64,000 nt of DNA from Escherichia coli. Lineage in GTDB: Bacteria; Pseudomonadota; Gammaproteobacteria; Enterobacterales; Enterobacteriaceae. A model generated the notes under the pieces. That model was not told where the DNA came from. It saw only the letters and a program-made list of their open reading frames with translations, and did not search any database. The translations under genes were made by a program, and so were the position numbers. Where the stretch lies: the NCBI RefSeq assembly GCF_013315695.1, contig NZ_CP054353.1. One strand, written 5' to 3'. Positions 23,396 through 24,534 of this stretch are shown here, one piece after another (within the stretch, counting starts at the first letter, position 1; every line of letters starts with the position of its first letter).

Positions 23396-23709
23396 AGCGT
23401 TACCTCAAAATGAGTCAGTAAATTGTGCTTATTTTAGCATTTGGCCTGGCCCGCCCGGCTCGACTGTGATCGCAGAAAGCCTTTTTCTTCCAGACTTCTA
23501 TCATGGCGTAAAAATCAAAAAATTACCTGCTTTATTGTGGCGATATTCCATGGGATGGATTAGCACATTTATCTTCGTTTTGCGAATTACATGACAGTCC
23601 GAAACAAGATGAAAAAGTATTTAAAAAAGGGGGGAGGAAGAATGAGCAGGACGAATTATTCTGAACCAGAAAGCAATCGGGCAGCGTCGTGCTGCCCGTG
23701 TACATACTT

Positions 23710-24534
23710 TTAGTCGATGGTACGCAGCAGTTCGTTAATGCCGACTTTGCCGCGAGTTTTCGCGTCAACTTTCTTAACGATAACCGCACAGTAAAGACTG
23801 TATTTGCCATCTTTCGACGGCAGATTGCCTGAAACAACCACAGATCCCGCCGGAACGCGACCGTAGTGGATTTCGCCGGTTTCACGGTCGTAAATACGGG
23901 TGCTCTGACCAATGTATACGCCCATAGAGATGACGGAACCTTCTTCGACAATCACCCCTTCAACCACTTCAGAGCGCGCGCCGATGAAGCAATTATCTTC
24001 AATGATGGTTGGGTTAGCCTGCAGCGGTTCCAGCACGCCGCCGATACCCACGCCACCGGAAAGGTGCACGTTTTTACCAATCTGCGCACAGGAACCGACG
24101 GTCGCCCAGGTATCAACCATGGTGCCTTCATCAACATATGCGCCGATGTTGACGTAAGACGGCATCAGCACGGTGTTACGGGCAATAAATGCACCCTGAC
24201 GTACCGCCGCTGGTGGCACAACGCGGAAGCCTTCTTTCTGAAAACGCGCTTCATCGTAGTTGGCGAATTTCATCGGCACTTTATCGAAGTAGCGGCTTTC
24301 TGCCCCTTCGATCACCTGATTATCATTAATACGGAAAGAGAGCAGCACCGCTTTTTTCAACCACTGATGCGTCACCCACTGACCGTCAATTTTTTCCGCC
24401 ACACGCAGTGCGCCGGAATCCAGCAGGGCGATCACCTGATTTACCGCTTCGCGGGTAACGGTGTCTGCATTGGCTGGCGTGATCTCGGCACGGCGTTCAA
24501 AAGCGGTTTCAATAATGTTCTGTAACTGCTGCAT
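23710..24534 (-). CDS. dapD: 2,3,4,5-tetrahydropyridine-2,6-dicarboxylate N-succinyltransferase
   Basis: 274-aa [29 protein letters not shown]...; hexapeptide repeats. Confidence 0.96.

Follow-up and report, generated by a model that had tools for sequence, protein, structure and literature searches.

A probably young, Escherichia-restricted small open reading frame superimposed on the proposed dapD terminator: probable opportunistic translation and no detectable selection

The spacer between yaeH and dapD in the window, the 64,000-nt stretch of Escherichia coli DNA analysed here, contains a 23-codon open reading frame (ORF), which is probably a young, Escherichia-restricted small ORF (sORF) that is superimposed on the dapD terminator and opportunistically translated, with no detectable selection. 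The ORF is already known, having been catalogued in 2017 as XECs011, a putative translated sORF and one of 465 RIBOseq-supported intergenic ORFs in E. coli O157:H7 Sakai (Huecker et al., 2017, PLoS One 12:e0184119, PMC5597208). The XECs011 paper makes no mention of the yaeI-alternative allele, the terminator overlap or a selection analysis for XECs011. Our analysis weakens the case for a real gene, in that the ORF is allele-specific, half encoded by a terminator, devoid of a selection signal and lost in some lineages. Its status is most likely that of opportunistic translation, or of a “proto-gene,” rather than that of a functional micro-protein, and we infer that the peptide has no function.

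The sequence-only reading had proposed a 23-codon ORF with GGAGG four nucleotides before its ATG and a stop codon that overlaps the dapD stop by a few nucleotides, and all of these features are present in the sequence. The frame runs from ATG 23642 to TAG 23713, convergent with dapD, and GGAGG occupies positions 23633-23637 (Table 1). The TAA of dapD lies at 23710-23712; the two stops share 2 nt, and the TAG of the ORF extends 1 nt into the last sense codon of dapD. The start codon thus has a ribosome-binding site at functional spacing, as expected of an sORF, and initiation presumably takes place at ATG 23642. In-frame ATGs farther upstream, at 23591 and 23609, give 40- and 34-codon forms. 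Only the 23-codon form of the frame is kept across alleles. A role as leader peptide or attenuator found no plus-strand gene downstream; dapD and glnD fill the minus strand up to 27237.

Table 1. Positions in the window of the ORF, its flanking genes and the elements discussed in the text.
Feature	Position	Strand	Remarks
yaeH (DUF3461)	23009-23395	-	
Transcription start site (TSS; EDL933 188331)	23431	+	“asTSS,” 4 of 8 conditions, 211 nt upstream of the ATG (Zehentner, 2023)
Remnant of a 236-aa hypothetical gene (its final ~16 codons)	23515-23565	-	window copy C*SIPWNIATIKQVIF*
“Orphan” TSS (EDL933 188445)	23545	+	1 of 8 conditions, 97 nt upstream of the ATG (Zehentner, 2023)
129-nt allele-specific segment	23546-23674		holds the SD, the ATG and codons 1-11; blastn breakpoints
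XECs011 equivalent	23567-23713	+	ATT “start,” 48 codons, in frame with the 23-codon ORF (supplements of Huecker et al., 2017)
Shine-Dalgarno (SD) purine tract A6-G6-AGGAAGA, AAAAAAGGGGGGAGGAAGA	23623-23641	+	length-variable homopolymer tract
23-codon ORF	23642-23713	+	ATG 23642-23644, TAG 23711-23713
Hairpin of the putative dapD intrinsic terminator	23678-23698	-	8-bp stem CGGGCAGC/GCTGCCCG, loop ACGAC; scan and fold
dapD (tetrahydrodipicolinate N-succinyltransferase)	23710-24534	-	stop overlaps the ORF stop

Half of the ORF coincides with a GC-rich stem-loop, which the sequence-only reading had also noted and taken for the dapD terminator. The hairpin was confirmed as an 8-bp stem with 7 GC pairs and a 5-nt loop, which begins 11 nt past the dapD stop, folds with -22.2 kcal/mol (z = -3.3) and was classified as terminator-like on the minus strand in our scan. 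The tail at 23668-23677, AUUGCUUUCU, is moderately U-rich and interrupted, and it passes the U-tract rule of the scan (5 T in 8). The K-12 allele has an identical stem followed by U7 (AUUUUUUUG; z = -4.1). Furthermore, none of the 80 pooled alleles has a change in the stem, which is also kept in K-12, E. albertii, E. whittamii, Escherichia sp. MOD1-EC7003 and Escherichia sp. E1V33, whereas the loop varies (GTCGT, ATCAT, GTTAT, ATTAT and GTCAT) and the 3' flank is hypervariable. A stem-loop just downstream of a stop codon, with a stem that is kept while its loop and flanks change, is what an intrinsic terminator should look like, and the hairpin is best read, from its sequence and predicted fold, as the intrinsic terminator of dapD and as the conserved functional element. 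It resembles the intrinsic terminators of enterobacterial genes in its GC-rich 8-bp stem, 5-nt loop and distance of about 20 nt from the dapD stop to the loop, but differs in the interrupted U-tract, and termination may therefore be less efficient in the window allele. Codons 12-23, including the “CCPC” cysteine cluster to which attention had been drawn, result from reading the terminator stem, which does not vary, and its flank on the plus strand; the cluster is present, but it is merely TGC TGC CCG, which forms the stem's 3' arm.

The remainder of the ORF lies in DNA that only some strains possess. The window, which resembles E. coli IAI39/CE10, lacks the yaeI gene that K-12 carries in this spacer; in place of the 129-nt segment K-12 has 842 nt holding yaeI, with blastn breakpoints at 23545/23546 and 23674/23675. 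Of 5426 E. coli genomes, 3338 (62%) carry one copy of the segment and 2084 (38%) carry yaeI, all of the latter without the ORF. Together they account for 5422 of the 5426 genomes, and the two alleles are therefore mutually exclusive. A literature search found no publication naming yaeI together with dapD. Outside Escherichia, about 70 species of the Enterobacteriaceae have an unrelated, compact spacer of 106-122 nt (~110 nt) with a terminator of its own, an unrelated hairpin bordered by A and U tracts (AAAAAAAGCGGGC...GCCCGCUUUUU), and in a synteny survey of 80 species the ORF was absent from all non-Escherichia genera sampled.

Several sources of the segment were considered. The 236-aa hypothetical gene, to which no Pfam family could be assigned, is located between yaeI and yaeH in MOD1-EC7003 and is complete in just one “E. 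coli” genome, GF43. An origin of the whole segment as a relic of this gene holds only for 23515-23565; the other 109 nt match it no better than shuffled sequences (P = 0.21). Likewise, the segment is not a decayed yaeI, since blastn with a word size of 7 gave only scattered matches of at most 14 nt and tblastn with the YaeI protein gave E-values of 0.06 or higher. A mobile element was rejected because the matching “plasmid” records are non-mobilizable Escherichia records of 0.4-4.9 Mb, taken to be mislabelled chromosomes, and a phage origin because the matches were A-rich and 27 nt long (E = 8e-3). No non-coding ancestor was identified for the 109 nt holding the start in the comparisons with the MOD1-EC7003 gene, plasmids and phages, and we therefore infer, rather than observe, a de novo origin.

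The ribosome-binding context had been described as unusually good, which holds true for the pairing energy. The predicted pairing with the 16S rRNA's anti-SD amounts to -11.3 kcal/mol at ATG 23642, versus a median of -2.5 kcal/mol for all 1983 ATGs in the window, and with only 0.7% of these at -9 kcal/mol or below, the site is placed in the top 1%. The combination of SD and ORF is, however, within chance for a scan of the whole window: a random Markov-1 sequence of 64 kb is expected to contain GGAGG followed by an ATG and at least 20 codons 6.6 ± 2.2 times, and the window has 4 occurrences, 3 of which are the starts of long ORFs. This expectation favors the reading that the ORF is a pure coincidence that is not translated, and that the RIBOseq signal of XECs011 is an artefact, for instance of fragments that the G-rich tract retains through anti-SD binding, of hairpin RNA shielded from RNase, or of spill-over. 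The stable hairpin within the ORF and the lack of a codon signature, discussed below, point in the same direction, as do the annotation beneath the segment, which is “none” in the sampled records of the 3338 genomes, and the absence of the exact 23-, 34-, 40- and 48-aa forms from a collection of 15 billion predicted proteins. Even so, we consider this reading unlikely, given the strong SD at a workable distance, a start region without significant structure on the plus strand (z = -0.85) and the capped plus-strand transcripts that begin upstream. E. coli ribosomes normally make use of a strong and accessible SD-ATG once the RNA is there, which also counts against an untranslated ORF.

The published ribosome profiling data bear on the same question. 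XECs011, MYLRFANYMTVRNKMKKYLKKGGGRMSRTNYSEPESNRAASCCPCAYF, is located at the same locus, on the same strand and in the same frame as the 23-codon ORF, to which its last 23 residues are identical except for T21A (PMC5597208). It differs in its published start, ATT 23567, because the authors required at least 30 aa and maximal ORFs, choosing the farthest-upstream possible start codon (PMC5597208); the extension is frame-broken in about half of the alleles, and 8 of 14 genome alleles and ~42% of the metagenome alleles have it truncated or shifted to another frame. In LB, XECs011 had a RIBOseq RPKM of 51.3, an RCV of 0.77 and a coverage of 0.59 (PMC5597208), and this coverage of the 144-nt XECs011 would fit footprints limited to the 72-nt ORF and its SD. 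The thresholds were passed in LB, one of three conditions, with RCVs of 0.18 and 0.02 in BHI and stress, and the read counts were 19 in the BHI control versus 2 in cold/osmotic stress (PMC5597208), all of which would suit an artefact. The same is true of two EDL933 translatome studies, in whose supplement text the ORF is not listed (Neuhaus, 2016, 2017). On the other side, the candidates of Huecker et al. were inspected by hand and 806 suspected false positives were removed (PMC5597208). Overall, the RIBOseq support for translation of the ORF is weak and not secure.

A further question is whether the plus-strand RNA itself could be the product. The two plus-strand start sites (Table 1), which we placed using the relation EDL933 coordinate = window + 164900, derive from Cappable-seq data of EDL933, in which the site at 23431 is antisense to the yaeH 5' UTR and differentially regulated (FDR 0.0008), and in which yaeH has minus-strand start sites at 23423/23424, 23493 and 23549 (Zehentner, 2023). 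Our scan found no sigma-70 consensus promoter on the plus strand, although capped start sites exist. In Sakai, plus-strand RNA over XECs011 reached 59-95 RPKM across the three conditions, whereas the footprints varied (PMC5597208). An antisense transcript from 23431 or 23545, passing over the leader or promoters of yaeH and into the 3' end of dapD, could modulate yaeH or dapD expression, with the ORF being incidental, and since no U-tract comes after the hairpin on the plus strand, read-through into antisense dapD is plausible. We nevertheless rate this explanation as very improbable. Antisense start sites number in the thousands genome-wide and most are weak (Zehentner, 2023), and neither plus-strand fold shows significant structure (z = -0.85 and -1.6). 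No Rfam family was found at threshold, the best being sroE (RF00371) with 22.7 bits versus a gathering score of 51 (E = 0.024), in an alignment of 47 nt confined to the hairpin. The link to yaeH or dapD levels is putative.

The frame itself is widespread among the alleles of the segment, which show 8% sequence divergence. Of the 15 sampled genome alleles 14 have it intact, as do 64 of the 69 metagenome alleles, 2 more of which contain an in-frame 6-nt duplication, and it is also intact, behind a textbook AGGAGG, in E1V33, which has ~93% dapD identity. All indels among the alleles are located in the purine tract (A6-8 and G4-7), and they never abolish anti-SD pairing, with duplex energies of -7.8 to -12.1 kcal/mol in the 16 alleles tested. 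The occurrence of an ATG with a strong SD in essentially all segment alleles and in a second species, E1V33, is a counterweight to the neutral reading. On the neutral side, the probability that the ORF would stay intact under neutrality is 0.13, and an antisense frame is likewise stop-free. Two strains have lost the ORF: BS-04, in which the ATG has become ACG, and L152, which is a true E. coli by its flanks and has a stop in place of Y6. According to the sequence-only reading, a frame that is not conserved beside a hairpin that is would argue against the ORF, and the data come near to this, with the ORF absent from the 2084 yaeI genomes and broken in BS-04 and L152 while the stem is kept.

Codon-level conservation, which had been suggested as a check, yielded no signature of selection. 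The 21 substitution states in the 80 pooled alleles are distributed as 6, 7 and 8 over the three codon positions, and 6 are synonymous versus 15 nonsynonymous, including one nonsense substitution; the selection tests gave P = 0.37 and 0.43, although with 69 sense nucleotides and shallow divergence they have little power, so that no signal does not equal no selection. A conserved frame combined with a pattern of purifying selection, as sought for an sORF, was thus not found at this low power. Residues 12, 16 and 20-23 are freely replaced across alleles, and C20 of the “CCPC” is Y or F in ~26% of them. In the comparison of E1V33 with the window, 8 of 10 differences fall at third codon positions, 3 of these 8 in the hairpin loop or a dapD codon. 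This excess hints at coding constraint, but it was not upheld in the 80 pooled alleles. There is, on the present alleles, no detectable sign that the peptide is under selection.

These data also allow us to weigh the possibility of a genuine, recently born micro-protein gene, in which the cysteine-rich peptide of 23 aa would serve a function peculiar to yaeI-less Escherichia and the length of the G-tract would tune the output. The SD and ATG, kept in 14 of 15 genome and 66 of 69 metagenome alleles in spite of the divergence and the frequent indels, would be expected of such a gene, as would the intact E1V33 copy with its mostly third-position differences and the differentially regulated antisense start site upstream. 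In addition to the RIBOseq support, translation of XECs011 was significantly lower in cold/osmotic stress and a machine-learning classifier judged it “real”; its kA/kS field is empty (PMC5597208). We find a genuine gene improbable all the same, considering the lack of a synonymous or third-position excess in the pooled data, the replaceable residues and frequent loss of C20, the two E. coli lineages without a working ORF and its complete absence from 38% of E. coli genomes. Moreover, the terminator stem dictates half of the peptide, and no homologue is known beyond Escherichia; homologues of XECs011 were likewise reported only in Escherichia (Huecker et al., S5; PMC5597208). A more elaborate version, with a functional and very young micro-protein gene assembled from deletion debris and an antisense terminator in the 62% of E. 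coli without yaeI, and equipped with a stress-regulated antisense promoter and a slippage-tuned SD, seems to us very far from likely.

We therefore return to opportunistic translation of a young sORF, for which we propose the following scenario. On the minus strand, the hairpin would terminate the dapD transcripts, while on the plus strand the ORF may have arisen by accident in Escherichia. The SD, a slippage-prone A/G run, the ATG and codons 1-11 would come from the 129-nt spacer left where yaeI and the neighbouring hypothetical gene are missing, and codons 12-23 from the terminator stem and the 11 nt up to the dapD stop, read from the opposite strand, with the ORF stop overlapping that of dapD. 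The strong SD-ATG would then be crossed by weak transcripts of the plus strand that are antisense to the yaeH leader, and ribosomes loading there would probably yield the 23-residue peptide in small amounts. Such low-level loading would explain the listing of XECs011 in the Sakai RIBOseq data. The two readings originally put forward, a real sORF and a coincidence, would in this way each retain a part: the strong SD-ATG, the start sites and the RIBOseq data support the former, and the invariant stem without conservation of the ORF and the lack of a codon signature support the latter.

De novo “proto-genes” are lineage-restricted ORFs that are translated from formerly non-coding DNA. The ORF resembles them in its restriction to one genus, its putative origin from a spacer with a gene relic and an antisense terminator, its weak translation and the absence of detectable purifying selection. 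It also resembles the small proteins of E. coli identified by Ribo-RET and Onc112 (Weaver et al., 2019, bioRxiv 10.1101/511675), being an unannotated intergenic ORF of at most 50 codons with an SD. It differs in that these catalogues were made in K-12 and the accepted small proteins were validated by tagging. Because K-12 has the yaeI allele and thus neither this SD nor this ATG, the K-12 Ribo-RET data are uninformative for the ORF, which falls outside the initiation-site evidence of these catalogues.

Our findings provide a worked example of how a strong SD-ATG and ribosome footprints can occur alongside neutral evolution, which bears on how RIBOseq catalogues of sORFs are to be read. If the peptide were functional, it would offer an example, open to dating, of a gene born de novo inside a genus. 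The locus also exists as two mutually exclusive, non-homologous alleles, yaeI and the 129-nt segment, and data from K-12 are therefore not transferable to most E. coli at this site.

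The ORF, a 23-codon plus-strand frame that converges with dapD, is present together with its purine-rich Shine-Dalgarno (SD) sequence and the hairpin that it overlaps, all as the sequence-only reading had described them. E. coli IAI39 and CE10 are 100% identical to the window. The dapD stop codon, TAA on the minus strand, occupies 23710-23712 and so shares 2 nt with the stop codon of the ORF, whose frame is open upstream as far as a TAG at 23561-23563, with further in-frame ATGs at 23591 and 23609 that would give 40- and 34-codon forms. The predicted duplex of the SD with the 16S 3' end has an energy of -11.3 kcal/mol; among all 1983 ATGs in the window the median is -2.5 kcal/mol and only 0.7% lie at -9 or below. 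Markov-1 random sequence as long as the window is expected to contain 6.6 +/- 2.2 occurrences of GGAGG followed by ATG and at least 20 codons; the window itself contains four, three of which begin long ORFs. Short ORFs with a strong SD should be expected anyway from a scan that covers 64 kb on both strands. How readily long open frames arise here is illustrated by a 139-codon TTG-initiated frame (23532-23951, minus strand), which spans the entire allele-specific segment, extends in a different frame into the 3' part of dapD and is taken as spurious.

Features of the dapD-yaeH region in local order, with transcription start sites (TSS) from EDL933 Cappable-seq (Zehentner 2023, PMC10469882) mapped as EDL933 = window + 164900
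Feature	Window position	Strand	Remark
cdaR	21780/21798-22955	+	
yaeH	23009-23395	-	
TSS	23423/23424	-	EDL933 188323/188324; yaeH
TSS	23431	+	EDL933 188331; asTSS, 4/8 conditions, regulated, FDR 0.0008
TSS	23493	-	EDL933 188393; yaeH
TSS	23545	+	EDL933 188445; orphan, 1/8 conditions
TSS	23549	-	EDL933 188449; yaeH
Purine run AAAAAAGGGGGGAGGAAGA	23623-23641	+	GGAGG ends 4 nt before ATG
ORF	ATG 23642, TAG 23711-23713	+	23-residue peptide
Stem CGGGCAGC / GCTGCCCG	23678-23698	-	5-nt loop; terminator-like
dapD	23710-24534	-	
glnD	24565-27237	-	

A terminator scan describes the minus-strand hairpin as 8 pairs, 7 of them GC, with a loop of 5 and the tail ATTGCTTTCT, and the fold of the minus-strand RNA (61 nt) has a free energy of -22.2 kcal/mol (z = -3.3); in K-12 an identical stem is followed by AUUUUUUUG (z = -4.1). 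The stem is invariant in 80 pooled alleles, in K-12 and in three other Escherichia species, while the loop (GTCGT, ATCAT, GTTAT, ATTAT, GTCAT) and the 3' flank vary freely, and the hairpin thus behaves like a functional terminator. The scan call, the fold z-score and the invariance of the stem uphold the earlier suggestion that this is most likely the dapD terminator, which would make it the conserved functional element of the spacer. Read on the opposite strand, the hairpin supplies ORF codons 13-19 (R A A S C C P), with 'CCP' (TGC TGC CCG) corresponding to the 3' stem arm. The 11 nt from the hairpin to the dapD stop (23699-23709) are hypervariable in E. coli alleles (GTGTACATACTT, GTATATGTACTC, GTATGCTGACGT), with a 6-nt duplication in two metagenome alleles.

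In K-12, yaeI sits on the minus strand between dapD and yaeH. Homology by blastn extends over window 23350-23545 (K-12 locus L002, 2051-2246) and 23675-23760 (L002 3089-3174), and these breakpoints indicate that a segment of 129 nt (23546-23674) replaces 842 nt including yaeI. The segment holds the SD, the ATG and codons 1-11, and the terminator region common to K-12 and the window holds codons 12-23. The segment allele, always in single copy and never annotated, was found in 3338 of 5426 complete E. coli genomes and the yaeI allele in 2084; since together they account for 5422 of the 5426, the two are mutually exclusive. E. coli is polymorphic for the presence of yaeI, and the window strain is without it (23396-23709 as compared with L002 2097-3123). 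Retapamulin data would bear on the ORF only in a strain with the 129-nt allele, not in K-12.

We retrieved 80 species-level loci through YaeH. In about 70 non-Escherichia Enterobacteriaceae (Citrobacter, Klebsiella, Enterobacter, Raoultella, Kluyvera, Cedecea, Kosakonia and others) the dapD-yaeH spacer is only 106-122 nt long, bears no relation to that of the window and has a canonical terminator of its own, AAAAAAAGCGGGC-loop-GCCCGCTTTTT. This compact spacer is well conserved and combines the motif TTGAATAATTAACGAAAA with a terminator of A-tract/hairpin/T-tract form; that of Enterobacter sp. BIGb0383, at 646 nt rather than the usual ~110 nt, shows no similarity to that of the window. In this survey yaeI was restricted to Escherichia, namely E. 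albertii, E. whittamii, Escherichia sp. MOD1-EC7003 and one nominal E. coli genome that GTDB uses as representative of a separate species. A window-type spacer with an intact ORF (MSRTNKSEPESKRAASCCPCTYS) behind AAGGAGGAAGAATG is present in Escherichia sp. E1V33. By these comparisons, hairpin, segment and ORF alike are specific to Escherichia, in whose lineage the whole spacer was replaced. For a genome labelled E. coli (NZ_JAATUR010000035.1, SCPM-O-B-8794), identity to the window is only 93% in dapD and 89-90% in glnD and cdaR; since E. whittamii and E1V33 are equally distant, it probably belongs to another Escherichia species.

MOD1-EC7003 has an extra gene between yaeI and yaeH (L028 1672-2382) for a 236-aa hypothetical protein with no Pfam family. 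Its last 16 codons align to window 23515-23565 on the minus strand, broken by a stop codon, which identifies the segment's left end as a gene relic. The full gene occurs in one 'E. coli' genome only (GF43); all other E. coli retain just about the last 16 codons as a relic, and K-12 fewer. For the remaining 109 nt, with the SD and start, no source was detectable in the 236-aa gene (P = 0.21), yaeI, plasmids or phages.

The ORF was compared among 15 genome alleles, drawn from across the identity ranking, and 69 usable metagenome alleles. Every indel was confined to the A6-8/G4-7 tract. The A6G6 homopolymer pair (23623-23634) is a slippage hotspot, which explains all length variation of the segment (124-133 nt); one allele has GGAGGAGG duplicated. 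GGAGG proper occurs in only ~18% of metagenome alleles, and anti-SD pairing ranges from -7.8 to -12.1 kcal/mol in the 16 of 16 alleles tested. In 8 of 14 genome and ~42% of metagenome alleles, indels break the frame of the 34-, 40- and 48-codon extensions, and the 23-codon core, intact in 14/15 genome and 64/69 metagenome alleles, is the sole stable form of the frame. Two further metagenome alleles have an in-frame 6-nt duplication in the core. In BS-04 the ATG is ACG and the downstream sequence has diverged; in L152, a genuine E. coli since its flanking genes are as near to the window as those of EDL933, codon 6 is TAA instead of TAT and the SD is weakened. Two frameshifted alleles, from contigs covered 0.6x and 2.3x, may be errors.

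Is this persistence a sign of a functional micro-protein? Taken alone, the comparison of E1V33 with the window resembles a coding pattern, as 8 of the 10 differences are at third positions; three of these eight fall in the hairpin loop or a dapD codon, and the signal fades in the pooled data. Among 80 alleles (11 ORF haplotypes), 21 substitution states split 6/7/8 by codon position, 6 synonymous and 15 nonsynonymous, including one nonsense. Codon-level substitution had been proposed as a check, and no coding pattern was detected: against simulations (stem excluded, transition:transversion 2:1) there was neither a synonymous (P = 0.37) nor a third-position excess (P = 0.43), with power limited by the 69 sense nucleotides; an earlier, smaller allele set gave P = 0.16 and 0.20. 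The chance of the ORF surviving 18 random single mutations is 0.13, and an antisense frame over the same 72 nt is stop-free in every allele. Residues 12, 16 and 20-23 are replaced freely, and C20 of 'CCPC' is Y or F in ~26% of alleles. Nothing supports a selected function, and we consider a functional micro-protein improbable.

The ORF is already on record as a candidate, XECs011 (Sakai O157:H7 188466-188609, plus strand, 48 aa, MYLRFANYMTVRNKMKKYLKKGGGRMSRTNYSEPESNRAASCCPCAYF; Huecker et al. 2017, PMC5597208), which shares the frame and starts at an ATT that maps to window 23567. Its start was chosen as the farthest-upstream possible codon, rare ones included, and the authors caution that the real start may be a downstream ATG (PMC5597208). 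In LB, RNA RPKM was 65.7, RIBOseq RPKM 51.3, RCV 0.77 and coverage 0.59; the corresponding values were 59.1, 10.7, 0.18 and 0.56 in BHI, and 95.2, 1.6, 0.02 and 0.30 in BHI + 4% NaCl at 14 C, with 19 footprints in the BHI control vs 2 under stress (PMC5597208). Conservation was limited to Escherichia (2828 hits, mean identity 89.9%; PMC5597208). With minimum values of 1 for RPKM, 0.5 for coverage and 0.25 for RCV (PMC5597208), XECs011 passes in LB alone among the three conditions, and neither it nor the ORF appears in the available part of the supplement text of two EDL933 translatome papers. That the footprints are an artefact and there is no translation at all is unlikely in our view. Coverage of 0.59 over 144 nt is, we infer, the value expected if footprints were limited to the 72-nt ORF and its SD.

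Independent evidence of transcription comes from EDL933 Cappable-seq (Zehentner 2023, PMC10469882), by which capped plus-strand RNAs would cross the ORF. That such an RNA, and not the peptide, is what matters seems the least probable reading. Since these RNAs would cross the ORF and its start region is unstructured (z = -0.85), low-level translation is likely and fits the published footprints. We favor, as probable, opportunistic translation without function: the ORF would be an accident, restricted to this lineage, of a strong SD-ATG lying in spacer debris, and runs into an opposite-strand terminator. The caution of the sequence-only reading over the terminator was justified; its interpretation as a whole is partly supported.

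The stretch 23578-23610, GTTTTGCGAATTACATGACAGTCCGAAACAAG, is invariant in 15 of 15 genome alleles, the divergent BS-04 included. On the minus strand it directly precedes the yaeH TSS at 23549 and for this reason may be yaeH promoter sequence unrelated to the ORF. Finally, a mechanical ORF list starts cdaR at GTG 21780 (391 aa); the true start is likely ATG 21798, as it is preceded by GGAGG and gives the 385 aa annotated in K-12 and IAI39.
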